Assembly (NCBI GenBank): GCA_046758325.1
Contig: JBHHZZ010000001.1
Location: 17,016 to 81,015, forward strand
DNA length: 64,000 bases
From: Thermoplasmata archaeon
GTDB taxonomy: Archaea > Thermoplasmatota > Thermoplasmata > RBG-16-68-12 > JAJISG01
Direction: 5' to 3'
Shown piece by piece: positions 1,650-41,034 of the stretch. The notes under the pieces are model-generated. The model did no database searches, was not told where the DNA came from, and was given only the letters and a program-made list of their open reading frames with translations. The translations under genes were made by a program, and so were the position numbers. Within the stretch, counting starts at the first letter, position 1. Each line of letters opens with the position of its first letter.

Positions 1650-2399
1650 GTGTCCAAGACCGTGGAGGCTTCTGAACGGGAGAGGTGTTTGACGGGCATC
1701 GACGCTCTAGACAACATCCTCAACGGAGGCATCCCCTGGGGCAACACCGTGCTGGTGACGGGGAGCTGCGGCACCGGGAAGACCTCCCTCAGTCTGGAAT
1801 TCATCCTCCACGGGGCGGAGGAGGGAGAGATCGGCCTCTTCGTCGCGGCCACTGAGACTCCGGAAAAGCTCATAGGGAACATGATACCCTACGACTTCTT
1901 CGATTCGATGATGATGGAGGATGGGATGGTCCATCTGGTGGACCTCCATGACCTCTACAAGGCCGCTGGGATAGGAGAGCCAGAGATCGACAGGAAGAAG
2001 GCTGAGGCCCTGGTGAAGGCCATCGTTGCCGCCGTCAAGGAGAGGAAGGCGAAGCGGCTCGTGATAGACTCCATAACCTCCATCTGCGCGAGGCTAAACA
2101 CCGGAGACAGGATTCGGGAATTCATCACCGCCCTCAGCCACGCTCTCGCCAAGCAGGGCTGCACCGCCCTCCTGGTCTCGGAGGTCTCGGCGGGCTCCCA
2201 CGTCTACTCCCCCTACGGCGTGGAGGAGGCCGTGGTGGATGGCGTCATCCTCCTCGGGAACCTGGAACGAAGGGGAGACCTGCTGAGGACCTTGCAGGTA
2301 GTCAAGATGAGGGGAACGACCCACTCCAGGGCCATGTACATACTGGACCTCACCTCCTGCGGCGTCCTGCTGGCCCCCCTCCTCAAGGGAGGTGGGTAG
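1650..2399 (+). CDS. KaiC-like single RecA-domain ATPase
   Basis: GIDALDNIL...VTGSCGTGKTSL Walker A with a KaiC/RadA-like core; GTG start. Confidence 0.7.
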   Translation: MSKTVEASERERCLTGIDALDNILNGGIPWGNTVLVTGSCGTGKTSLSLEFILHGAEEGEIGLFVAATETPEKLIGNMIPYDFFDSMMMEDGMVHLVDLHDLYKAAGIGEPEIDRKKAEALVKAIVAAVKERKAKRLVIDSITSICARLNTGDRIREFITALSHALAKQGCTALLVSEVSAGSHVYSPYGVEEAVVDGVILLGNLERRGDLLRTLQVVKMRGTTHSRAMYILDLTSCGVLLAPLLKGGG

Positions 2400-2966
2400 T
2401 TGGCCCTCGCTACGGATGCCATGGGCAAGCTGCTGGAAATGCCGCCAGCATCGGCCGTCGCTATGGTGATGAAGGCGGAGCATTACTTCGATGCCGTCAG
2501 GGTGATCCTGGACGTGTTCGCTCCCAAGAGAGACGTTCATTCCATCTACGTCACGGCCACCATACCCTCCAAGTCCATCATCAACGCCCTGGAGGTCCTA
2601 GACGTGGACCTGAAGAGGACCTACTTCGTCGACTGCGTCTCGAGCATGATGATGGGCATCGGCGAGAGACATGAGAAGGCGGTCTATGTGGAGAGCCCCA
2701 GCATGCTGGAGAACATCATGCTCAAGGTGGAGTTCCTCATCAGGAAGCTGAAGGGGGTGGACTGCGTCGTCGTCATCGATTCCATAAACTCCCTGGCGAT
2801 CCACAACAGCCCCAAGATCCTCTCTGAGTTCCTACACATCCTCATCAACCATCTGCGATCCAGGAACGCGTACACCGTCATCTTCGCCATGGAGGAGTAC
2901 GCCACCGAGGAGATAGGAAACATCCTGAACCTGGTCTGTGACGACTCCGTCACCTTCACCGGCTAG
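2400..2966 (+). CDS. Degenerate KaiC/RecA-like domain protein lacking a Walker A motif
   Basis: Layout resembles a KaiC second domain (VVVIDSINSL, TVIFAME) but has no P-loop. It begins at TTG one nt after the TAG stop of the upstream KaiC-like gene, with GGAGGTG 7 nt upstream. Confidence 0.45.
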   Translation: MALATDAMGKLLEMPPASAVAMVMKAEHYFDAVRVILDVFAPKRDVHSIYVTATIPSKSIINALEVLDVDLKRTYFVDCVSSMMMGIGERHEKAVYVESPSMLENIMLKVEFLIRKLKGVDCVVVIDSINSLAIHNSPKILSEFLHILINHLRSRNAYTVIFAMEEYATEEIGNILNLVCDDSVTFTG

Positions 2967-3057
2967 GCGAATACCATTGGTGAGAATCGTAGGAAAGGGT
3001 TTATCTAGATTCCATCAGACCTCCTCCTTCGTAGGGAAACCTACAGGAGGACAGAAC

Positions 3058-3516
3058 TTGAGAAAGCCATGGGCGATCCGAAAGGATCAGGCCGCAGTGT
3101 CGCCGGTTATTGCTACCATCCTCATGGTGGCGATCACCGTCGTCCTGGCCGCAGTCCTGTACGTAATGGTATCAGGACTAGTCAGTGGTCCTGGGTCGAC
3201 GCCTGAAGTCATACTAGTCTCGGTCAGAAAGACCACAGACGGCACCAACTGGGAACTGACCTTCCAGGACGTTCCCACGGGGAAGAGCCTATCTTCCGTC
3301 TATCTGATTGTCTTCTACGGCAACGGAACCGTTGCACTGACGAAGACTGCCCTTAGCTCGCTAAGCGGCAACGCCCAGTTCGTACAGATAGATACTAGCG
3401 CAACAAGCATACAGGCCGGAGACAGGTTGCTGCTGAGCGTCACTACGTACGCAGCAGGCTCCACCTTCCAGTTGGTGGATGACAACGGCGTCCTAGCAAC
3501 GGGAACACTACAGTAG
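3058..3516 (+). CDS. Archaeal class III signal peptide (type IV pilin-like) protein
   Basis: MRKPWAIRKDQAAVSPVIATILMVAITVVLAAVLYV is a prepilin-like N-terminus. TTG start sits 8 nt downstream of GGAGG; an alternative ATG at 2938 overlaps the upstream gene. Confidence 0.5.
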   Translation: MRKPWAIRKDQAAVSPVIATILMVAITVVLAAVLYVMVSGLVSGPGSTPEVILVSVRKTTDGTNWELTFQDVPTGKSLSSVYLIVFYGNGTVALTKTALSSLSGNAQFVQIDTSATSIQAGDRLLLSVTTYAAGSTFQLVDDNGVLATGTLQ

Positions 3517-3766: not shown

Positions 3767-4270
3767 ATGGCTGTCATCAGACTCTACGCATACCACCAGG
3801 AGCTCTGTGATCCCAAGAGGTGCACCTCGAAAAAGCTCGCCCGGCACGGATTGCTTCGACTGGTGAGCCGCCTGAAGAATCTGCCCAGGGGTTCCGTAGT
3901 CCTGAACCCCGTGTCGGGGACCGCCCTCTCAAGAAAGGACGCCGCCGCCGCGGGACACCATGGCCTGTGTGTCCTGGACACCTCATGGAGGTCCGGGAGC
4001 TTTCCTAGGGTGAGGGGATGCAGGGAGCGGACCCTCCCCTATCTCGTCGCCGCAAACCCGGTGAACTATGGGAAGCCCATCAAGCTCTCCAGCGCTGAGG
4101 CCCTGGCCGCGGCGCTGTACGTCATGGGGTATGCAGAGCAGGCCGAGAAGCTGTTGTCGAAGTTCAAGTGGGGCCCCATCTTTCTGCAGCTCAACGCTGA
4201 GCCCCTGAAACTCTATCGAGAGGCTGAAGACAGTTCAGAGGTCGTTGCGGCCCAGGCCGAGTTCATCTGA
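3767..4270 (+). CDS. tsr3: Tsr3 (DUF367) 16S rRNA aminocarboxypropyltransferase
   Basis: IRLYAYHQELCDPKRCTSKKL signature. Confidence 0.65.
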   Translation: MAVIRLYAYHQELCDPKRCTSKKLARHGLLRLVSRLKNLPRGSVVLNPVSGTALSRKDAAAAGHHGLCVLDTSWRSGSFPRVRGCRERTLPYLVAANPVNYGKPIKLSSAEALAAALYVMGYAEQAEKLLSKFKWGPIFLQLNAEPLKLYREAEDSSEVVAAQAEFI

Positions 4271-4439
4271 GGTCGGGAGGCAGGAGGTTTGGAATGCCCT
4301 CCTTTATCTCATAAGTGTAGTCGCACTGATGGCAGATGAGCCGCCCCTCCAATACCTCATCCTCCTCCACATCCACCTTGAGTTCCAAGTCGCCCTTGCA
4401 GACAGGACAGCAGAGGATGTCCATCAGTTCTCGCTTCAT
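4263..4439 (-). CDS. Trm112-like small zinc-finger protein
   Basis: MKRELMDILCCPVCKGDL...GRLICHQCDYTYEIKEGIPNLLPP. Confidence 0.55.
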   Translation of the reverse strand: MKRELMDILCCPVCKGDLELKVDVEEDEVLEGRLICHQCDYTYEIKEGIPNLLPPDLR

Positions 4440-4552
4440 CCGTGACCATAGACTTCCAGGCGAACTTAAACCCTTCGTCGGCCATTTAATCAGGAACCCG
4501 CTGGAAATAGATAAATAGGGGCGCCCTGTCAGTATCCAATCCAGGTGGGGCC

Positions 4553-7500
4553 TTGGCCGAAGCAAAGACCATTAGGCAGACAATCAGCGTCACCCTCATT
4601 CTAGGTGGCATCTTCGCCCTCGCCGTCTTCATCCGGGCCTACTTCGCCTACGACCTGGCCCTCCGGGACTTCCTCGTGTCGGGAGGTTCCGACGCCTTCT
4701 ACTACAAACGCATCATCGACTACATCGTCTCCACGGGGAAGCACCTCGTCCGGGATGAGATGCTGAACTATCCCTTCGGAATGAACAACCCCAGGCCCCC
4801 CATCTACGCCTGGAGCGTGGCCCTCATCGGCATCCTGCTGGGCAACGTGCAGGGCTCCCTGGAGCTCGGAATATGGCAGAGCTTTCTCTTCTCCACCGCC
4901 TTCTGGGGCGCCCTCACCATCTTCCCCACCTACTTCCTGGCCCGGGACATCTTCGGCCGTCGGGTCGGGTTCGTGGCTGCATTCTTCTTGGCGATCCTCC
5001 CGGCCCACATTCAGAGGACGCCCCTGAGCAACGGGGACCACGACGCCCTCGTCCTCTTCTTCGTGGTGACTGCCTTCTACTTCTTCCTGAGGGCCTTGGG
5101 AGAGCTCAAGGAGAAGACCTGGGTGGACAACTGGATCAGGCCCACCACCGTATATCGGGGTTTGAGGCAGCTCATCGGGGAGAATAGAAGACCCGTCCTC
5201 CTATCGATCATGTCCGGCACGGCCATAGCGGTGGTGGCTCTCACCTGGCAGGGGTGGGCCTATGCCCCGGTGGTCGTAATAGCCTACTTCCTGGTCCAGC
5301 TCCTGGTGCACAAGTTGAGGAACCAGGACCCCCTGGGCACCCTCCTGTGCTTCACCGTGGCCCTGGGAACCGCTCATCTCCTGGCCGCTCCCTACTACAT
5401 CGCAACCGGCTTCGTCCGCACATGGTTCGACGTGCCCCTATTCCTCTTCGCCGCCTCTGTTGCCCTGGGCTTCCTCTTCGCCATCTTCCATCGCCTACCA
5501 TGGATGTTGGTCATCCCGCCCATCGTCCTTGGCTTCGGGGCCGGTCTTGCCATCGCATCCCTCTACAGTCCGGCGGTGGCCCAGACCCTGACCTCCGGTC
5601 TCGGTTACTTCGTCAGGACGAAGGTCTATGAGACCATCGCCGAGGCCCAGCCCCCTAACCTGAGCCAGGCAATCCTCTCCTTCGGCGCCGTGACATATTA
5701 CCTCTCCATGGTCGGCATCGTCTGGATGGCCATCCAGTTTGTTCGGAGGCCAAGGCTCCATTATCTCTTCGCCCTAGCGTGGAGCGCTGCGGCCATCTTC
5801 ATGGCCATGTCAGCCGTCCGGTTCATCTTCAACGCTTCCCCCGCCTTCGCCATCACCTCGGCGTGGGTGACGGTCCTCATCGTGGAGAGGCTGGGGCTAG
5901 AGCAGGTGAGGAAGGCCGTGGTATCCACGGGCGGGAGCAAATGGGTGGCCCTCAAGAGGGGGATAAAGGTCAGGCATGTGGCCGGAGCCCTCTTCGTTGC
6001 CCTTCTCCTCATCCTTCCTAACACCTGGTACGCCGTAGACGCTGCCATACCCTTCGAGAAGAAGCAGGAACTGGATCTGGAGGTGTACAGGAGCACGCCG
6101 GAGCCCCTGAGGCCCCAGGGCTACAGGGAGGGGAGTCTCTTCTACTTCGGCGCCTTCGGTTACAGTCTTCCCCTACCCAACAGGTACTTCCCGAAAGCTT
6201 GGGAATGGCTACGCCAGCAGGACGCCGACATAGTGCCGTATTGGGAGCGACCTGCCTTCCTGAGCTGGTGGGACTACGGGTTTGAGGCCATCCAAGAGGG
6301 CAGGCACCCGACAGTGGCGGACAACTTCCAGAACGGTCTCGAGTTCGCGGGTCACTTCCTGGCGGCCCAGAGCGAGAACGAGGCCATCGCGGTACTGAAC
6401 ATACGCCTCCTCCATGGAGACTTGACCCTCAACCGCGGCAGCTTCAGCGCGGGGGTCCGACAGGCCCTGGCCGATAAGGGCCTGGACCCTGATTTCGTGA
6501 AGGACGTCCTTCGCAGGCCCGCCGTCTACGTCCCCCTCATTAGGTCAGACCCGGATCGCTTCGGGGAATGGGATGTCCGACTCTCCAGCAAGAACGTGAG
6601 GGTGATCTTCCTCAAGACCGTGCTGACGGAGACGCTGGACCTGGACGGTCAGGCTGATCTCTATAGGGACCTGAGAAGCGCCACGGGCAACTCCGTCCTC
6701 TATTTCGCAGTCGACTCCCGACTCGTGCCCTTCTCAGGGACGAACACCGGGATATTCTACGCACCCATCAAGCTCACAGACCACAGAACGGTGGAATTGC
6801 CCGATGGCAGGAGCATACCCGTAGACTTCTACAGACTGGTGGCAGAGACAGACCGGGGGGAATATGACCTCGAAAAGGTGCCGCCAACGGCCAGGGTCAT
6901 CAACATCCGCATCGAGTACAAGGAGATGTTCTACAACAGCATGCTGTACAGAATCTTCTTCGGAACTCGCGGCCAGGACGTGGGTAAGGAGGACGATGGG
7001 CTTCCCGGGATATCTGGACAGCTGCAAGCAGAGGCACCCAGCCAAGGCCGAATGCTGAAGCACTTCAAAATGGTTTATCGAACGGCGTATTTCAACCCGA
7101 ACCCGCCCGACGAGGCCGCCAACAGAACGGAGGACTGGAGTGCCATCAACCTGTTCGACGCTCTGGAGCTGCAACAGAGCATCGAACGCGGGGAAGCAGA
7201 GGGGACCGTGGACATCTCGGCCCGAGCAAGTCTGCAACAGGGAATCGTCATCCTGAAGTACTACGACGGGGCCATCCTTAGGGGCCAGGTCACGACTCAG
7301 GCAGGCAGACCGCTGGAAGGAGTAAGGATAACAGTGCTCGACGACCTTTCCATACCCCACGATGTCACCTTCACAGACTCCAAGGGATTCTACGAAGCCC
7401 TGCTGCCCTTTGGGGAGGTCCGGGTGGTGGCCTCCGTGGGAGATGTGGACGGCGCTACCCAGACTGGGAGAACTGTCCTGGGCGAGAAAGAGCTGACGGT

Positions 7501-10500
7501 GAGCGAGGACCAGGCAATGAACCTCCCTCTGGACGTCGACGGCGATGGTCGCCCTGATTACCTCCTAGAGGAGCTGTTCCAGATCCAGGGGGCATCCCTG
7601 GAGGGCGTCGCCTTCCTGGACCTCAATGGAAACACGAGGAAGGACATGGAGGAAGGCACGCTTGAGGGACTGCAGGTGGAGGTTACGGACAGTAAGGGTG
7701 GTACCGTTGCCGCGACCCTGACGGACGCCGACGGGTTTTATCGGGTCACTGACCTCCTACCTGGCACCTACAACATCTCTCTCAGACGCGCGGACGCAAA
7801 GGTGGTGGAAACGGAAGTGACCATAACCCTGGGCGAGCGCAGGACTCAGGACCTGCCCGTCTTCGTCAAGCAACTGGCTGGCAGGGTGGTGGACGAGTTA
7901 GGTGGACCGGCGGAGGGAGCCCTAATCCAGCTGACGGAAGAGGCCACAGGCGTGCGGATCGTGACGGTGGCGAACGGCAAGGGAAACTACACCTTCGAAG
8001 GGCTCTTCGAGGGCAACTATACGCTGGAGGCCACCCTCGGAGAACGGGGCTCCCTCCCCAGGAGGTTGAGGATTGTACGGGGACAGAACACCACCGGAGA
8101 CCTAGAGGTGGAACCCATGGGCGAGCTCACAGGGAGATCCCTCCTTTCGTTTGTGCCGGCGCCTTTCGTGTCCTTTACATTGTTGAGGAGAGGGGACGGT
8201 CTTGCCGCAACCGTCATTAGCGACTCCTCAGCTCGCTTTGACGTGAGGTTGCCTGAAGGCACTTATGATGTCTACGCCTTGCACTTCGAGAGGAGCAGAC
8301 CCTACAGCTTTTTGGGAGCCCTCCAAGTGGGCGAAGGGAGCGTTCAGACTCTAGAGTTGAACCTCCAGCCCGCCTTGAGGGTCCATGGAAGCATCGTACA
8401 AGAGGACGGGACCGGGGCGGGCGGGGCCCACATTACTTTCGAGATGTCCGGGGCACAGACTACCCTCGTATCTGACAATGACGGCTCCTTCCTGGTGTAC
8501 CTACCACCTGGACCCTACAACTTGTGGGCCCTCTCGGAGGAGGGACAGCATGTATCCTCCTTGCTCTTGGAGACGACCACAAGTCTGGAGGTTCTCCTAG
8601 TAAGCGGGACGCCCGTGGAGGGAAGGGTTTTCTACGACAAAAACCGGAACGCCACGTGGGATGCCGGAGAGGGGCTGGAGGGCGTGCGGATTCAGCTCGT
8701 CGATTCCTCTGGAAGAGCCCTGTCTGTCATCACCCAGGAAGAGGGGAGGTACCGGGTTCCGCTCCTAAAGGAGACGAGCTACCGGCTGAGCATCGATGAG
8801 GCTGGTTTCACACCTATATCCCTCGGACCCTTCACGGCGACAGAGATGGCCGGCGTCGCCATCATCGAGCTGAGGCCTGAGACCCTTCAGGTTTCCGGAC
8901 GCCTCGAGGGGTCGGTGGACCTGGCGGGTATCGGTGTCCTCCTCGACGCCATCGGGGACGGCGCGACCTCCGTCGAGGTGACGACAGACGCCGCGGGCGC
9001 CTTCTCTGCCGAGGTCCTCCCTGGACTTTACAGGTTGGTAGTCGACGTCAGGGAGGACGGTGGCGGCGATGGCGTGAGAATCCAGAACCTGCAGGAGGAG
9101 ATTCTGAGGGTTCCCGTAGGAAAGGACGTGGGGCCCATCCTCATTCGAGTGGTCAGAAGGGTACTGGTGGAGGGGCAGATTGATGTGGAAGGGGGCCCCT
9201 TTGAGGGGGCACTTTCATTTATCGGCCCTGAGGAGGCCTCTCTCAACATCCAGGGGGAGTTCGCAACATACCTGCAGCCGGGAAACTACACTATCTACGC
9301 GACCGCCCAGCTGAACTTCAAGAAGTATGCGCTCCTGGAGCACAGAGACCTCACATCACCGGCAAACCTCTCCTTCACCCTAGATGAGGCCGCGGTTCTG
9401 TCAGGGGGTGTGAAGGTGGGAGATTCCATCGTCTCAAACAGCATTCCCCTGAGCTTCCTCCGCCAGGATGGGGCAAGGGTGGAGCTGCAGACTGAGGTCT
9501 CAGGGACCTACCTGGCAATCCTCTCTGGTGGTACATATCAGGTAAACCTCGAGTGGCGGGGCCTGGACGAGGTTGACGGCCTTCGGAGATTCGTTCGCTA
9601 TACCTTCAGTCAGGAGGTAACGGTCCAGGGAGGACAACCGGAACAGCTTGACCTCACGCTGAGCAGGTCCCTGGACAACGCTACCCTTGTGACTGAAGTG
9701 CTCCTCTCTGACCAGCTGGTCTCAGCTACCCTCACCTTTGAGGCAGCAAATGAGACAGCGGTGTCCACAACTGTCAAGGCTCCCGCTGGGACCTCTTTTG
9801 AGGTCTCTTTGGCGCCTGGAACCTACAGCATCTACGCCTACAGGGACACGGGCAAGTCGGTAAACCTGACCATGCTGGAGGTGGTGCCCTACATGAGCAA
9901 CGAGGCCACACTTCGCCTGGAGGCTGGATATAGAGTCGCCGGCGTCGTCTCTCTCGAGGATGGCACCAAGGAGACAGCGAGGATAGAGTTCACGTCGGTG
10001 GCAAGCATTAGCTTCGACTCCGACGGGCTAGGCATCTTCGAGGCGTATCTCCCCAAGGGCCAGTACCAGGTGACGGCCACCTCCCAGAGGCTCGAAAGGG
10101 GGATGCTCGTCGACTACGAGTTCTCTGGTCCCCTGGACATCAGGGAGAGTACCCTCCTGAACCTGCAGCTGGCCAGGGTAACCTTCCAGGGCGTGGAAGT
10201 CATATGGGATCCGTTGGAGAGGACCAGCGCCCTTCCAGGAGAGGGAGCGGTGTACACCCTGACCTTGAGGAACACGGGAAACGTGGAGGACAGCTTCAGA
10301 CTGGAGGGCCGACCCCAGGACTGGGGATTCGACTTCGACCCCCCAGTCGTGACCCTGCCCTTCGGTGAGAGTAGCGAGACTACCGTCAAGCTTACCATCA
10401 CCTCTCCCGACGACGCCGAGGTGGCTCATGAGCCTCTCGTCATCGAGGCCGTCTCCACCTCCAATGCCAGCGTTATGGAATTCACCCAGGTTGAGCTCGA

Positions 10501-11020
10501 CATACTTCAGATCAGGGGAGTCGTCCTACGTCTTTCGGAGGAGCCCCCTGTGCTGTCACCCGGGGCACTGGAGTACGAGGTCGAGGTGTTCAACGAGGGG
10601 AATGGGGAGGATATCTACACCCTCATCCTGACGAACCCAGAGACCCTCTCCATCCAGGGATGGAGAGCGAAGCTTCTCTACAAAAACCAGACCTCCCCAG
10701 ACAGGACGGAGGATGTCGCGGTCCCAGCTAGGGAGGCGAGGTCAGTGACCCTGAGGCTGGAGACAACGGGCCCCGTCAGCGCCTCCAAGGTTGTTCTGCT
10801 GGCCTTTTCCCAGGATGATCGCAATGTGGAGTCTTACCTAGAGGTGAAGCTCTCCTTCCCTTCCCTTGACATTCCCATTGAGGATGTAAGCCTCGAAGGG
10901 AAGAACGTGAGGTTGGGACCTCCGGAGTTCCCACTGATCCTCTACGCGGCCATAGCAGCGGCCGCCGTCCTCGCGGCCATCATCCTCATTCGGTACAGAC
11001 AGAAGAGGTGGCGCCGTTGA
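4553..11020 (+). CDS. aglB: Giant AglB/STT3 oligosaccharyltransferase (2155 aa): N-terminal multi-TM STT3 domain with WWDYG, then about 8 tandem CarboxypepD_reg/Cna-B (SdrD-B-like) beta-sandwich repeats and a C-terminal TM anchor
   Basis: WWDYGFEAIQ catalytic motif near nt 6268. Repeats of the form G.V.D..G.PLEGV.I.L.D......TDA.GFY....L.PG.Y.L span about nt 7250-10850. Hydrophobic LILYAAIAAAAVLAAIILI lies at the C-terminus. TTG start. Confidence 0.8.
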   Translation: MAEAKTIRQTISVTLILGGIFALAVFIRAYFAYDLALRDFLVSGGSDAFYYKRIIDYIVSTGKHLVRDEMLNYPFGMNNPRPPIYAWSVALIGILLGNVQGSLELGIWQSFLFSTAFWGALTIFPTYFLARDIFGRRVGFVAAFFLAILPAHIQRTPLSNGDHDALVLFFVVTAFYFFLRALGELKEKTWVDNWIRPTTVYRGLRQLIGENRRPVLLSIMSGTAIAVVALTWQGWAYAPVVVIAYFLVQLLVHKLRNQDPLGTLLCFTVALGTAHLLAAPYYIATGFVRTWFDVPLFLFAASVALGFLFAIFHRLPWMLVIPPIVLGFGAGLAIASLYSPAVAQTLTSGLGYFVRTKVYETIAEAQPPNLSQAILSFGAVTYYLSMVGIVWMAIQFVRRPRLHYLFALAWSAAAIFMAMSAVRFIFNASPAFAITSAWVTVLIVERLGLEQVRKAVVSTGGSKWVALKRGIKVRHVAGALFVALLLILPNTWYAVDAAIPFEKKQELDLEVYRSTPEPLRPQGYREGSLFYFGAFGYSLPLPNRYFPKAWEWLRQQDADIVPYWERPAFLSWWDYGFEAIQEGRHPTVADNFQNGLEFAGHFLAAQSENEAIAVLNIRLLHGDLTLNRGSFSAGVRQALADKGLDPDFVKDVLRRPAVYVPLIRSDPDRFGEWDVRLSSKNVRVIFLKTVLTETLDLDGQADLYRDLRSATGNSVLYFAVDSRLVPFSGTNTGIFYAPIKLTDHRTVELPDGRSIPVDFYRLVAETDRGEYDLEKVPPTARVINIRIEYKEMFYNSMLYRIFFGTRGQDVGKEDDGLPGISGQLQAEAPSQGRMLKHFKMVYRTAYFNPNPPDEAANRTEDWSAINLFDALELQQSIERGEAEGTVDISARASLQQGIVILKYYDGAILRGQVTTQAGRPLEGVRITVLDDLSIPHDVTFTDSKGFYEALLPFGEVRVVASVGDVDGATQTGRTVLGEKELTVSEDQAMNLPLDVDGDGRPDYLLEELFQIQGASLEGVAFLDLNGNTRKDMEEGTLEGLQVEVTDSKGGTVAATLTDADGFYRVTDLLPGTYNISLRRADAKVVETEVTITLGERRTQDLPVFVKQLAGRVVDELGGPAEGALIQLTEEATGVRIVTVANGKGNYTFEGLFEGNYTLEATLGERGSLPRRLRIVRGQNTTGDLEVEPMGELTGRSLLSFVPAPFVSFTLLRRGDGLAATVISDSSARFDVRLPEGTYDVYALHFERSRPYSFLGALQVGEGSVQTLELNLQPALRVHGSIVQEDGTGAGGAHITFEMSGAQTTLVSDNDGSFLVYLPPGPYNLWALSEEGQHVSSLLLETTTSLEVLLVSGTPVEGRVFYDKNRNATWDAGEGLEGVRIQLVDSSGRALSVITQEEGRYRVPLLKETSYRLSIDEAGFTPISLGPFTATEMAGVAIIELRPETLQVSGRLEGSVDLAGIGVLLDAIGDGATSVEVTTDAAGAFSAEVLPGLYRLVVDVREDGGGDGVRIQNLQEEILRVPVGKDVGPILIRVVRRVLVEGQIDVEGGPFEGALSFIGPEEASLNIQGEFATYLQPGNYTIYATAQLNFKKYALLEHRDLTSPANLSFTLDEAAVLSGGVKVGDSIVSNSIPLSFLRQDGARVELQTEVSGTYLAILSGGTYQVNLEWRGLDEVDGLRRFVRYTFSQEVTVQGGQPEQLDLTLSRSLDNATLVTEVLLSDQLVSATLTFEAANETAVSTTVKAPAGTSFEVSLAPGTYSIYAYRDTGKSVNLTMLEVVPYMSNEATLRLEAGYRVAGVVSLEDGTKETARIEFTSVASISFDSDGLGIFEAYLPKGQYQVTATSQRLERGMLVDYEFSGPLDIRESTLLNLQLARVTFQGVEVIWDPLERTSALPGEGAVYTLTLRNTGNVEDSFRLEGRPQDWGFDFDPPVVTLPFGESSETTVKLTITSPDDAEVAHEPLVIEAVSTSNASVMEFTQVELDILQIRGVVLRLSEEPPVLSPGALEYEVEVFNEGNGEDIYTLILTNPETLSIQGWRAKLLYKNQTSPDRTEDVAVPAREARSVTLRLETTGPVSASKVVLLAFSQDDRNVESYLEVKLSFPSLDIPIEDVSLEGKNVRLGPPEFPLILYAAIAAAAVLAAIILIRYRQKRWRR

Positions 11021-11781
11021 GGGCACTCCTGGTCCTTCTCCTCCTCGTCCTGGCCCTGATTCCCCTCCCCTCCCAAGCCCAAGGGCCTGTCGCCATCTTC
11101 ATATCGACCCCAGATGTTGCCGGAACGGGCAAGGACGTGCCCGTCAGCGTAACCGTAGCGGGAGGTCCGGGGGAGGACAACGGGACCTTCAGCATCAAGG
11201 TCTACCTGCGGGGAGAGGATATGGAGGGAGCGGCGCCTCTGGAGGAGTCTCCCCTGGAGAAGTCCTCCTCAGATAAGACCTTCGACTTCAACGTAACCAT
11301 GCCCCTCGCGGAGCAACAGGTGGAGATTGTCGTTGAAGCCAACTCCACCAAGGGTGGCCAGTGGAGCGTCAGTTCCTCCAGCAAGACGGTCACCGTGTTA
11401 GTGCCTCTGATCGTCTCGGCCAGCGTGGTGAACACTGGAGATGTGGAGATCAAGGACGTCCCCGTCTTCCTCTACCTAGACGGAAAACAGGTCGCGGAGA
11501 CAAGGCTGGGCAGCCTTAAACCCGAGGAGTTCGAGGAGGTCAGCTTCGAGTACCTGCCAGTAGGCCTATCCGTCGGGACCCACAGGCTAGAGATCAGGGT
11601 CGACCTCAATGAGGACGGGAACATCGACCCTGCCATGGGCGAGGTCGTGCTTCAGATGACCTTCGTGAAGGAAGCGGAGCCCATAAACCCCCTCTACATC
11701 GTGCTGGCCGTCATCGGGGCCTTCGTCGCGGCCCTCTTCGTCGGTGCCGCCATCCGCCAGCGGAGGGCCACCAAGAAGTAG
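11008..11781 (+). CDS. Secreted Ig/CARDB-like protein with signal peptide and C-terminal TM anchor
   Basis: N-terminus MAPLRALLVLLLLVLALIPLPSQAQG; C-terminus LYIVLAVIGAFVAALFVGAAIRQRR. The GTG start overlaps the aglB TGA stop. Confidence 0.45.
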   Translation: MAPLRALLVLLLLVLALIPLPSQAQGPVAIFISTPDVAGTGKDVPVSVTVAGGPGEDNGTFSIKVYLRGEDMEGAAPLEESPLEKSSSDKTFDFNVTMPLAEQQVEIVVEANSTKGGQWSVSSSSKTVTVLVPLIVSASVVNTGDVEIKDVPVFLYLDGKQVAETRLGSLKPEEFEEVSFEYLPVGLSVGTHRLEIRVDLNEDGNIDPAMGEVVLQMTFVKEAEPINPLYIVLAVIGAFVAALFVGAAIRQRRATKK

Positions 11782-39093: not shown

Positions 39094-41034
39094 TTACCCT
39101 CCATCCCCCTTTCTCATGAGCTTGAACACGAGGAAGCCTAGGACCGCCAAGAGAGTGGCTATCCCAACCGCGACATAGAACAAGCTCGTGCTGGTCAGGG
39201 GAGGCGGGAAGTCGCTGAAGGTCAGGGTGATGCTTTCGGAGCTGTTGAGCTCAGTCTGGGCCGATTGAACGCCCGAGTCATAGAGTGAGCCCATGTACGA
39301 GGTCACGTAACGAGCCTGGACTGTGTAGCTGCCCCCGGGCAGGAGCAGCACGACTGTGCCGTCTGGACCGGTAAGGCCAGCGTCATAGACGAGACCCGTG
39401 GAATCTGTCAAGCTGACGAACACGCCCGAGAGCGCCTGTCCGTCTCCCGACATGGTGGTGACGGTGAGCTTGTAAACGGCCGTCCTGAAGGCGATGATAT
39501 CGTTGCCCACCACGTCACCGCTTCCGTTGAAGACGTCGACCCCCCGCCAGGCTGCCAGGAGGGCGTATGTGCCTACCGGGACCTGGCTGAGGGTGACCTG
39601 GCCGCTTCCGTCGGTCTTGTAGGGGCCGAGTTTCTCCCCGTTTGGATGAATGAAGATCAGCGAAGCCCCCGCCAGGGCAGAGCCGTCTGAATCCTCAGCC
39701 TGGAAGACGGGGTAGTACACCTGTGTGTCGATTACCAGAGGGTTCGACTCTGTGATGTTGGACTGGACATCCTGAAGCGAGGAGGCGACCCTCACGTCTT
39801 GCCAATAGACCTGGAACTCGTACGCGGCCTTGGCCATGGTAAAGTTCACCATTCCATCCGGGTCCGTCGTCTTGGCGTCTACGATGAAGCCGCCACTTAC
39901 CAGTTCCACCCTCGCACCTGCCAGGGGCACGCTCTTGGAGTCGACCGTCTTTACGTTTGCATAGACGGGCAGCCCGTCGATGAAGAACGTCGATGTAGCG
40001 GTATCGGGATAATCGTCATAGTCGAACTGCTGGAAGAAGTGGTAGTAGTTGTGACCGTTGTTGTCGAGCGCCCAAACCTGCATCGTGTATTCCCCGATTG
40101 CCTGGTCCGTGTAGTTCCAGACGACCTCGAACACGCTGTCGTAGCTCCTAGGGGTGCCAGAAATGTGGGCCATGGAGACGTTGTCCAGGAGGACGACGCC
40201 GAACGGAGACATGAGGGTAAGGTTGACCCAGCGGATGTCGTACCCGCCTAGGGGGTCGGTAACATTGGCCTGGATGTACACCGTCTTGTTTTCAGCCACA
40301 GGATCGAAGTTGATTTCTGGGTTCCGATTCCAGTCCAGGGTCGCGATTGTGGCAACATCCAGGGAATCGGGTCCACGAAAGCTAATGCGGCTGTTGACCT
40401 GGGGTGTGTCGTAATGAAGCCAGATCCCTTGCAGAGCTCCCGGCGTGACGGTCATCCGCAGCTCGATGGAAGATCCGGCTCGGAAGGTGTGAGGGGACAC
40501 AAAGGTCGCGTTCCAGCTAGCCAGTGTCGGTGTGACTGGAAAGTCCTGACTGCCCAAGTTCTCCTCATGGACCAACGTGGAGGTCGTCGTATTCAGCTCG
40601 AAAATCTCCAGGGTGACCTGCGCGTTGCTGCTCGCTCCCGTAGAGGAATTGGCCCAGATTCGCAGGGTGAATCCATCCGCGCTGAAATCGCCCACCAAGG
40701 CAGGGACTGAGAACCACTGCATCACTTTCTGCGTTCCCTCGACCAGAACGCTTACGTTCACGTCGTTGAAGTCCAGGGTCGTATCGAAGTAGGTGAGTGT
40801 GCTGCCACCGTCCGGCAAGGGCTTTGCCGTCTCTGTTGCGTTGACCGAGTGGAGCAGAAAGGTCATGTCTTTTGTCACGCCGTTGACGGCGTGGACCGTG
40901 GGGGCCGGAAGCGTGACCACGAGTAGGGCGGACAGGACGAGCAGCGGAAGAGCGAGCAACGTCAAGGCCTTGGACGCAGTCGATCTCGTTCCTGCATACC
41001 GGAGAGGGGTCTTTTCTCGGGTCATGGGAAGCAC
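39094..41034 (-). CDS. Large secreted glycoprotein candidate: signal peptide, CarboxypepD_reg-like repeats, many N-x-S/T sequons, C-terminal TM anchor
   Basis: GARVELVSGGFIVDAKTTDPDGMVNF..., GASLIFIHPNGEKLGPYKTDGSGQVTL..., GVFVSLTDSTGLVYDAGLTGPDGTVVL...; at least 14 sequons; C-terminal LFYVAVGIATLLAVLGFLVFKLMRK. Confidence 0.55.
   Translation of the reverse strand: MLPMTREKTPLRYAGTRSTASKALTLLALPLLVLSALLVVTLPAPTVHAVNGVTKDMTFLLHSVNATETAKPLPDGGSTLTYFDTTLDFNDVNVSVLVEGTQKVMQWFSVPALVGDFSADGFTLRIWANSSTGASSNAQVTLEIFELNTTTSTLVHEENLGSQDFPVTPTLASWNATFVSPHTFRAGSSIELRMTVTPGALQGIWLHYDTPQVNSRISFRGPDSLDVATIATLDWNRNPEINFDPVAENKTVYIQANVTDPLGGYDIRWVNLTLMSPFGVVLLDNVSMAHISGTPRSYDSVFEVVWNYTDQAIGEYTMQVWALDNNGHNYYHFFQQFDYDDYPDTATSTFFIDGLPVYANVKTVDSKSVPLAGARVELVSGGFIVDAKTTDPDGMVNFTMAKAAYEFQVYWQDVRVASSLQDVQSNITESNPLVIDTQVYYPVFQAEDSDGSALAGASLIFIHPNGEKLGPYKTDGSGQVTLSQVPVGTYALLAAWRGVDVFNGSGDVVGNDIIAFRTAVYKLTVTTMSGDGQALSGVFVSLTDSTGLVYDAGLTGPDGTVVLLLPGGSYTVQARYVTSYMGSLYDSGVQSAQTELNSSESITLTFSDFPPPLTSTSLFYVAVGIATLLAVLGFLVFKLMRKGDGG

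Follow-up and report, generated by a model that had tools for sequence, protein, structure and literature searches.

AglB, the archaeal oligosaccharyltransferase (OST), is commonly regarded as a single-subunit enzyme that works alone and has ~600-1050 residues. What a far longer AglB might be for is the question raised by a stretch of 64,000 nucleotides from a Thermoplasmata archaeon (contig JBHHZZ010000001.1, positions 17,016 to 81,015; the whole stretch is called the window below). According to the list of open reading frames (ORFs) and their translations, the window holds an uninterrupted aglB (4553..11020, + strand) with a TTG start, which encodes 2155 residues (237 kDa) and is directly followed by a partner gene. 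The original prediction had put this protein at roughly twice the size of characterised AglBs; it is more than twice as long as the 875-residue AglB-L chain in the PDB. The same prediction called the architecture unusual, which holds relative to the AglBs studied so far. Judged from sequence comparison, the giant form is nevertheless the standard, vertically inherited AglB of Methanomassiliicoccales and related Thermoplasmata.

The identity of the enzyme was examined first by sequence. The Pfam STT3 model matched residues 46-433 (E 2e-17, above its cut-off), hydropathy placed the hydrophobic, helical segments of the core at residues 7-499, and the closest solved relative by sequence was Archaeoglobus fulgidus AglB-L (AfAglB-L; 3WAJ). 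Conservation of the catalytic motifs was judged on orthologue alignments of 30 and 61 sequences. The first acidic residue, in GGSD47, aligned with GGND47 of 3WAJ and is invariant in both sets. The second acidic motif, D162-H163-D164, aligned with N-D-H of 3WAJ and reads as a metal-binding D-x-H/D motif; its three residues are invariant in the 30 sequences, and in the 61 H163 is invariant while D162 and D164 are at least 90% conserved. The TIXE motif of external loop 5 is present as T361-I-A-E364, aligned with TIAE of 3WAJ, with T361, I362 and E364 invariant, and low values of the predicted local distance difference test (pLDDT) at residues 349-351 fit a flexible loop 5. The WWDYG motif, placed by the original prediction at about residue 572, occupies exactly residues 572-576 (nt 6266-6280). 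It aligned with WWDYG of 3WAJ, its region gave a weak AglB_core-like Pfam match, and it is present in 265 of the 266 members of the standard size class defined below.

An AlphaFold model of residues 1-1000, built on 61 sequences (pLDDT 88.4, predicted TM score (pTM) 0.84), gave AfAglB-L (7E9S) as the best fold match (E 2.8e-26, TMt 0.66) at ~17% sequence identity, followed by human STT3A/B, yeast Stt3 and PglB. Residues 501-897 matched the C-terminal domains of AglB-S (3vgp, 3vu0). Between WWDYG and the next conserved block, I734-x-Y736-A737-x-x-K740-L741-x-D743, lies a helical insertion of ~100 residues (~608-711). Hidden Markov model (HMM) alignments to AfAglB-L end at about residue 634 or earlier, that is before this block. 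The lysine of the AfAglB-L DK motif, which like the MI motif of other enzymes completes the +2 Ser/Thr pocket, appears to be absent from the equivalent position; K740, which may take its place, lies a few residues further on. Membership in TIGR04154 (archaeo_STT3, the archaeosortase-A-associated AglB subfamily) was rejected, as the score of 218.9 bits is below the cut-off of 450; positions 3-601 of the 831 in that profile were matched. Overall, the N-terminal ~900 residues are by their motifs and modelled fold a bona fide AglB that looks catalytically competent, and the protein is almost certainly an active AglB.

The rest of the chain is of a different nature. Pfam HMMs detected CarboxypepD_reg (E 6e-56, five stretches) and SdrD_B (E 8e-24, three stretches) domains, so that the immunoglobulin (Ig)-like repeats proposed over ~1200 residues were confirmed in kind. 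Their number was underestimated at seven to eight. A second AlphaFold model, of residues 956-2155 (pLDDT 89.4, pTM 0.51), is all-beta until the final helix, and the two models combined contain 13 beta-sandwich domains within residues 898-2102. Profile comparison with hhalign divided these into two families: 11 transthyretin-like domains (D1-D11), mutually homologous mostly at 90-98% probability, and two CARDB-like domains (D12-D13), which are related to each other (97%) and not to the others. D1 is the best conserved of the 13, with 46% identity to distant orthologues, followed by D12 with 36%; the remaining domains show 21-31%. In the model D1 is positioned next to the catalytic domain, and it could be recognised in four ~1150-residue relatives inspected. 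Just ahead of D2 there is a loop resembling a calcium site (D994-V-D-G-D-G), and D12-D13 carry NTGNVED and NEGNGED motifs. No conserved surface motif was identified in D2-D11.

The only hydrophobic segment past residue 499 in the hydropathy profile is 2123-2150, which follows a low-confidence linker after D13 and precedes the basic tail RYRQKRWRR, in agreement with the C-terminal anchor originally proposed. With the STT3 C-terminal domain outside and a tail that fits the positive-inside rule, the topology is self-consistent: a 1650-residue ectodomain is tethered to one membrane at both ends. Held in this way, it would form a loop or arch over the membrane. An archaeosortase signal of the PEF-CTERM or PGF-CTERM type was considered and rejected, as 'PEF' precedes the transmembrane (TM) segment only in the closest clade and lacks conservation over the family; no NCBIfam sorting-signal model matched the C-terminal tail. 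With a pI of 4.5 the ectodomain is acidic, and it lacks cysteine. The Ig region contains twelve N-glycosylation sequons, whereas its composition predicts 5.0 +/- 2.2, and enrichment was seen in all 30 aligned orthologues (z 1.2-8.3). The repeats had been described as rich in sequons; this is true of enrichment, whereas the absolute density is modest (~1 per 100 residues). Sequon positions are mostly not conserved, with a few exceptions (N857, N1709).

To what extent this architecture is shared was determined by several searches. A word-indexed search returned 445 relatives, of which the best 120 are 1870-2205 residues long (all but three 2139-2205) and 35-69% identical. Among species-representative genomes, 340 stretches were found to encode relatives; of these 340, the best 80 are almost all full-length and come from metagenome-assembled genomes (MAGs) of Thermoplasmata, Methanomassiliicoccales and Methanomassiliicoccaceae. 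An exhaustive HMMER search with the core only yielded 305 representative clusters at E <= 1e-30. In the resulting collection of 370 proteins a standard class of 266 clusters has a length of 2161 +/- 30 residues, although identity falls to ~35% over the whole protein and to ~29% in the core alone. The C-terminal TM segment with its basic tail is present in 264 of these 266. The 30-sequence alignment is nearly gap-free at ~35% identity; its conservation is higher over the enzyme (~0.6-0.75) than over the domains (0.4-0.5). A near-constant length (standard deviation 30 residues) argues against a freely variable version of the 'stalk' originally proposed. Methanomassiliicoccus luminyensis B10, the type species and available in culture, encodes a 2173-residue member (P0143, CAJE01000020.1). 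No match named after the S-layer-less Methanomethylophilus was among the matches listed; the RumEn M1 query belonged to the Methanomassiliicoccus group.

Since the window comes from a MAG, it had to be asked whether a mis-assembly or a read-through had joined an ordinary aglB to a separate surface-protein gene. Nothing was found in favour of such an artefact. The same architecture occurs in the 266 clusters, which derive from NCBI, JGI, ENA and Logan assemblies, and in the isolate genome of M. luminyensis B10; the GC content is even along the gene and its region, and Tandem Repeats Finder reported only three trivial 22-28-nt matches in the aglB region and no tandem repeats at the DNA level. 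The artefact explanation is thus already refuted. Nor was a natural version found with the repeats in a gene of their own: the two apparent splits (P0171, P0220) were rejected as frameshift artefacts, being on long-read contigs in which neighbouring housekeeping genes are also fragmented. Recent tandem duplication and assembly collapse were likewise ruled out, as DNA repeats are absent and the domains are individually orthologous between species. These comparisons indicate that the domain duplications are ancient and that the domain number is fixed. One further orthologue, on a 1.99-Mb complete MAG chromosome (CP070767.1, L047), is an ORF of 1860 residues which matches only from query residue 342 and may be frameshifted or 5'-truncated.

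The partner gene was predicted to start with GTG inside the aglB stop region and to encode a secreted protein. Tight coupling was confirmed, and GTG 11008 is in frame. The more likely start appears to be TTG 11017, because its TTGA start/stop overlap with aglB resembles the -4 overlaps of orthologous loci, where the two genes overlap by -4 or stand a few nucleotides apart. Upstream of TTG 11017, at a distance of 7 nt, there is a GAGGTGG motif. The product consists of a signal peptide, two beta-sandwich domains, a TM segment (residues 228-249) and the tail RQRRATKK. Possession of a C-terminal TM segment and basic tail besides the signal peptide means that it is membrane-anchored, a type-I membrane protein rather than a secreted one. 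Pfam CARDB (PF07705) matched residues 124-201 (42.3 bits against a cut-off of 22.7, E 9e-11) and is also recorded for the partners in loci L001, L003, L005 and L087. A homologue stands directly downstream of aglB in 79 of 79 assessable loci among 86 examined; the remaining seven reach a contig end or have a broken frame near one (L052). In M. luminyensis, a 245-residue partner gene directly follows P0143. The partner evolves fast (median identity 25%) with its layout kept, and its sequon N95 ('FNVTMP') is N-x-S/T in 57 of 76 partners. The partner profile is colinear with residues 1891-2079 of AglB, that is with D12-D13 (hhalign probability 92%, E 7e-7).

Size variants of the family bear on this pairing. 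A mid-size class of ~1100-1300 residues, with 36-40% core identity, has the same core and D1 with two or three further domains. The second anchor is absent in 23 of 24 of these proteins, and no partner gene was found downstream in the one locus examined. P0317, P0338, P0353 and P0360 (~1150-1190 residues; L089 2616-6080) consist of the core, D1 and ~3 Ig-like domains; L089 has no adjacent CARDB gene, and a separate 317-residue CarboxypepD_reg protein is encoded ~900 nt downstream. At the other extreme are 'super-giants' of 2300-2775 residues (P0316, P0283, P0284, P0285 and similar; L091 5001-13328), several with more Ig-like domains and a true CARDB domain in-line ahead of the final anchor. 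Many longer forms aligned to the core in two stretches, which points to inserted sequence behind it; in P0316, P0285 and P0283 additional hydrophobic segments were read directly at this place. In 12 long representatives (2228-2775 residues) the CARDB and TM half of the partner HMM matched the protein's own C-terminus in-line, and in the one such locus examined, that of P0316, there is no separate partner gene. In P0270 (2667 residues; L093 1751-9754) a whole partner follows the AglB anchor (partner HMM E 1.4e-37) in the order TM-RR-TM-ectodomain-TM, with TM segments at residues 2348-2367, 2374-2403 and 2640-2658. This may be a Rosetta-stone fusion, or two overlapping ORFs may have been joined by a 1-nt assembly error; we give it little weight. 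Strict gene pairing, translational coupling, shared layout and the in-line versions together suggest that the partner is probably a second subunit, which would dock on the membrane-proximal module of D12-D13 and TM helix.

Comparison with known systems showed where the giant AglB resembles them and where it does not. AfAglB-L (3WAJ, 3WAK, 5GMY, 7E9S) has the same GT-C core followed by an extracellular domain, and the catalytic motifs align, but its chain ends after the globular domain; the giant form adds the helical insertion, the 13 beta-sandwich domains, the second TM anchor and a dedicated partner gene. Searched against PDB sequences, the family profile in fact matched NOMO2 best (E 8.6e-29), ahead of AfAglB-L. 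NOMO, a subunit of the BOS complex (PDB 9C7V), is likewise a string of transthyretin-like Ig domains, about 12 in number, with one C-terminal TM segment and a short tail, and it sits, as the extension does, on the non-cytoplasmic side of a protein-translocating membrane. It differs in having its own signal peptide and no enzyme fusion, whereas the giant AglB chain ends in two CARDB-like domains. Pfam models of the NOMO-type domains matched weakly, and NOMO was absent among the top 50 Foldseek matches. Membership in the NOMO family, or orthology with it, was rejected, as the matched stretches are not colinear and the likeness is one of repeat type only. As a rod of Ig folds NOMO1 measures ~27 nm, and its lengthening widens the lumen of the endoplasmic reticulum (ER) (PMC8327139). 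Scaled from this value and from the 19 nm of four Ig domains in BaTIE, the 13-domain chain anchored at both ends would stand very roughly 15-30 nm high.

Two other groups were compared. With the staphylococcal proteins SdrD and UafA, only domains of the B-repeat type (Cna-B-type stalk domains of MSCRAMM adhesins) matched; the giant AglB lacks an LPXTG/sortase signal, a ligand-binding A domain and SD repeats. Membership among the MSCRAMM Sdr adhesins was rejected, the NCBIfam SdrC/SdrD models giving 26-30 bits against cut-offs of 1700-2500. The number of repeats in MSCRAMMs differs from strain to strain, unlike the domain number of the giant AglB, which is fixed across an order. The eukaryotic OST resembles the two-gene system in combining a catalytic STT3 with single-pass partners that have beta-rich lumenal domains (ribophorin I/Ost1, OST48/Wbp1). 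The analogy is functional: no sequence or fold match of the extension or the partner to ribophorin, OST48, Swp1 or malectin was among the matches listed.

The observations as a whole could best be explained by a two-gene, vertically inherited N-glycosylation module, a surface-embedded two-subunit OST with a length-constrained, NOMO-like strut or arch; we put the probability of this explanation at about 0.5. The N-terminal ~900 residues would move a glycan from its lipid carrier to Asn-X-Ser/Thr sites of proteins as these emerge on the outside of the cytoplasmic membrane. In the modelled arrangement D1 would stand beside the catalytic domain, D2-D11 would form a NOMO/SdrD-like string, and the CARDB-like D12-D13 and the second TM helix would close the arch. 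The extension may then be a length-defined structural strut or spacer, not a variable adhesin or a ligand-binding array, because its domains drift in sequence but hardly change in number or total length. The translationally coupled partner would pair with the membrane-proximal module of the enzyme as a second subunit, as suggested by its having the same layout as that module (two beta-sandwiches, TM segment, basic tail). The weakest step concerns the role of D2-D11. Constant domain number and length with drifting sequence, together with the analogy of NOMO as a length-setting rod (PMC8327139), leads us to favour tentatively, at somewhat less than even odds, an arch of fixed geometry, which would seat the enzyme within the outer layer of unusual envelopes or take part in forming that layer. 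A much bolder version, which we consider improbable, would make the OST itself a principal architectural element of the surface in wall-less or otherwise unusual Thermoplasmata, where fixed-height arches with the partner define a pseudo-periplasmic layer. Such arches would correspond in archaea, perhaps through common descent, to the Ig-rod spacers found next to the translocon and OST of the eukaryotic ER, NOMO being an example.

Several points weigh against this explanation. The pTM of the ectodomain model leaves the long-range geometry unfixed, and both the arch and the pairing of AglB with its partner are things we infer. The CARDB-type likeness of the partner to D12-D13 is partly generic, and the P0270 fusion comes from a single contig of one sample (Logan SRR22388244), where a 1-nt error could create it. 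Enzymes are normally low in copy number, which is awkward for a bulk structural role. Finally, a conventional AglB may exist alongside the giant form in the same genomes.

Other uses of the extension were considered, and all seem less probable. The chain of Ig domains might display N-glycans added by the enzyme itself, as a self-glycosylated stalk of a glycocalyx forming a sugar coat on wall-less cells. The roughly twofold, family-wide enrichment of sequons with the conserved N857 and N1709, the acidic, cysteine-free ectodomain, and the existence of at least one cultured member of the order, M. alvi, with no cell wall or S-layer and a single membrane (PMC10673518) speak for such a coat. We consider it unlikely, however, given that there are only 12 sequons in 1220 residues and that most of their positions are unconserved; it is moreover not obvious why a stalk that displays glycans should require a fixed number of domains, a second anchor or a partner subunit of its own. 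About as unlikely is a platform for handling substrates, in which the arch and the partner would act like the accessory subunits of OST (ribophorins, OST48/Wbp1) by docking to the Sec translocon or by holding nascent chains. Several eukaryotic OST subunits are single-pass proteins with a beta-sandwich on the lumenal side, like the partner. The strict conservation of the gene pair and the properties of D1, the most conserved domain, modelled with confidence beside the catalytic domain and retained in the shorter relatives inspected, could also be understood in this way. The divergence of D2-D11 between lineages and their want of an identified conserved surface motif do not fit, nor does the absence of eukaryotic accessory subunits from the matches listed, and ten spacer domains exceed what docking needs.

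A tether between two membranes would also account for a rod of fixed length, which suits a fixed inter-membrane distance; in double-membraned relatives the rod would span the space between inner and outer membrane and have its C-terminal helix in the latter. M. luminyensis carries the gene pair and is reported to have two membranes (PMC10673518; PMC6098224). The poly-arginine tail after the last TM segment, on the other hand, follows the positive-inside rule for the cytoplasmic membrane, there is no known machinery that inserts such an anchor into an archaeal outer membrane, and the family is spread over many lineages. We regard the tether as very unlikely.

Sequences of this family are already public under inconsistent names (P0001, P0134, P0143, P0157, P0210 and others), and the architecture appears to have remained unstudied. 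A full-text literature search, whose library did not include the main survey of AglB diversity known to us (Nikolayev et al. 2020), found no description of the extended AglB in these lineages or of its partner, so that an earlier mention is still possible. The names in use are 'carboxypeptidase regulatory-like domain-containing protein', 'glycosyltransferase family 39 protein', 'STT3 domain-containing protein' and 'AglB', the first two of which are misleading; JGI names many family members OST. P0001, the protein identical to that of the window, lies on a 156-kb contig of an NCBI 'Thermoplasmata archaeon' MAG and bears the first of these names. The significance of the finding is that an order-level archaeal radiation, including the human-gut methanogen M. 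luminyensis, carries a length-invariant extracellular superstructure of 1250 residues on AglB. If the pairing and the structural role are true, this would be a prokaryotic multi-subunit OST, and N-glycosylation would be tied directly to envelope construction in cells that lack an S-layer or have a second membrane. As the operon is present in a cultured species, these questions are directly testable and deserve to be followed up.

The coordinates of the features are collected in Table 1.

Table 1. Features of the giant aglB and its partner gene, with positions in the window
Feature	Residues	Position (nt)	Strand	Basis or remark
Promoter/ribosome-binding site region, putative		4511..4549	+	Read from sequence
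TATA-like 'gataaatagg', putative		4511-4520	+	Read from sequence
GGTGGGG Shine-Dalgarno-like motif, putative		4543-4549	+	Just 5' of the aglB TTG start
GT-C transmembrane core	1-500	4553..6052	+	Pfam STT3, hydropathy, 3WAJ alignment, 7E9S fold match
Extracellular catalytic/globular domain	501-897	6053..7243	+	AlphaFold model, 3vgp/3vu0 matches, invariant columns
D1, transthyretin-like beta-sandwich	898-985	7244..7507	+	AlphaFold model, profile comparison; Pfam TTR_TEN1-4 at residues 907-949
D2-D11, ten transthyretin-like / CarboxypepD_reg / SdrD_B-type domains	1014-1868	7592..10156	+	
D12-D13, CARDB-like / FixG_C-like beta-sandwiches, membrane-proximal	1869-2102	10157..10858	+	
C-terminal TM helix with basic tail	2128-2150 (helix)	10934..11017	+	Hydropathy, AlphaFold helix
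Partner gene, type-I membrane protein	254-257 in total	11008..11781	+	Overlaps aglB stop, in another frame

A scan for sigma-70 promoters, whose model is not applicable to archaea, found nothing, and an Rfam scan of the window gave no matches. The listed ORF of a Trm112-like protein (window 4263-4565, - strand) begins with TTG at 4565 and shares 13 nt with the beginning of aglB. Its orthologues have 54-107 residues and the window ORF contains an internal ATG near 4453; the real gene is probably shorter than listed, leaving a divergent intergenic region of ~100 nt.

Upstream neighbours of aglB are genes for Tsr3, Trm112, KaiC-like ATPases and a pilin; translin, purD and folD genes lie downstream. 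Synteny of this kind is kept across lineages and so speaks for vertical inheritance. The presence of a glycosylation gene cluster was considered and rejected: the neighbours of aglB are housekeeping genes, and no such cluster was seen among the larger ORFs of the window that were scanned. On the + strand at 1650-3516 there are two genes for KaiC-like ATPases followed by one for a protein with an archaeal type IV pilin N-terminal domain. The arrangement at a distant orthologous locus (L001 3830-5823) is similar: upstream of aglB stand genes for a KaiC-like ATPase, an unannotated 186-residue protein and a pilin.

Other genes were noted near orthologous loci. In Methanomassiliicoccaceae (L087 13437-13760, L003 15432-15755) the partner is followed by a gene for a 107-residue thioredoxin with a weak precomputed OST3_OST6 match. 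It was rejected as an OST3/6-like subunit, since WCGPC and the absence of a signal peptide mark an ordinary cytoplasmic thioredoxin. A few genes past the aglB operon, in M. luminyensis and a related MAG (L087 from 16775, L003 from 19184), lies a gene for a NosD/beta-helix repeat protein of ~1900-2100 residues, possibly a major surface protein. In a Methanomassiliicoccales MAG a protein of 1523 residues with no Pfam match is encoded a few genes upstream of the giant aglB (L005 648-5219, - strand). Within the window itself, a 646-residue protein with CarboxypepD_reg, SpaA and macroglobulin-type domains (39094-41034, - strand) is probably another surface protein of the same domain kind.

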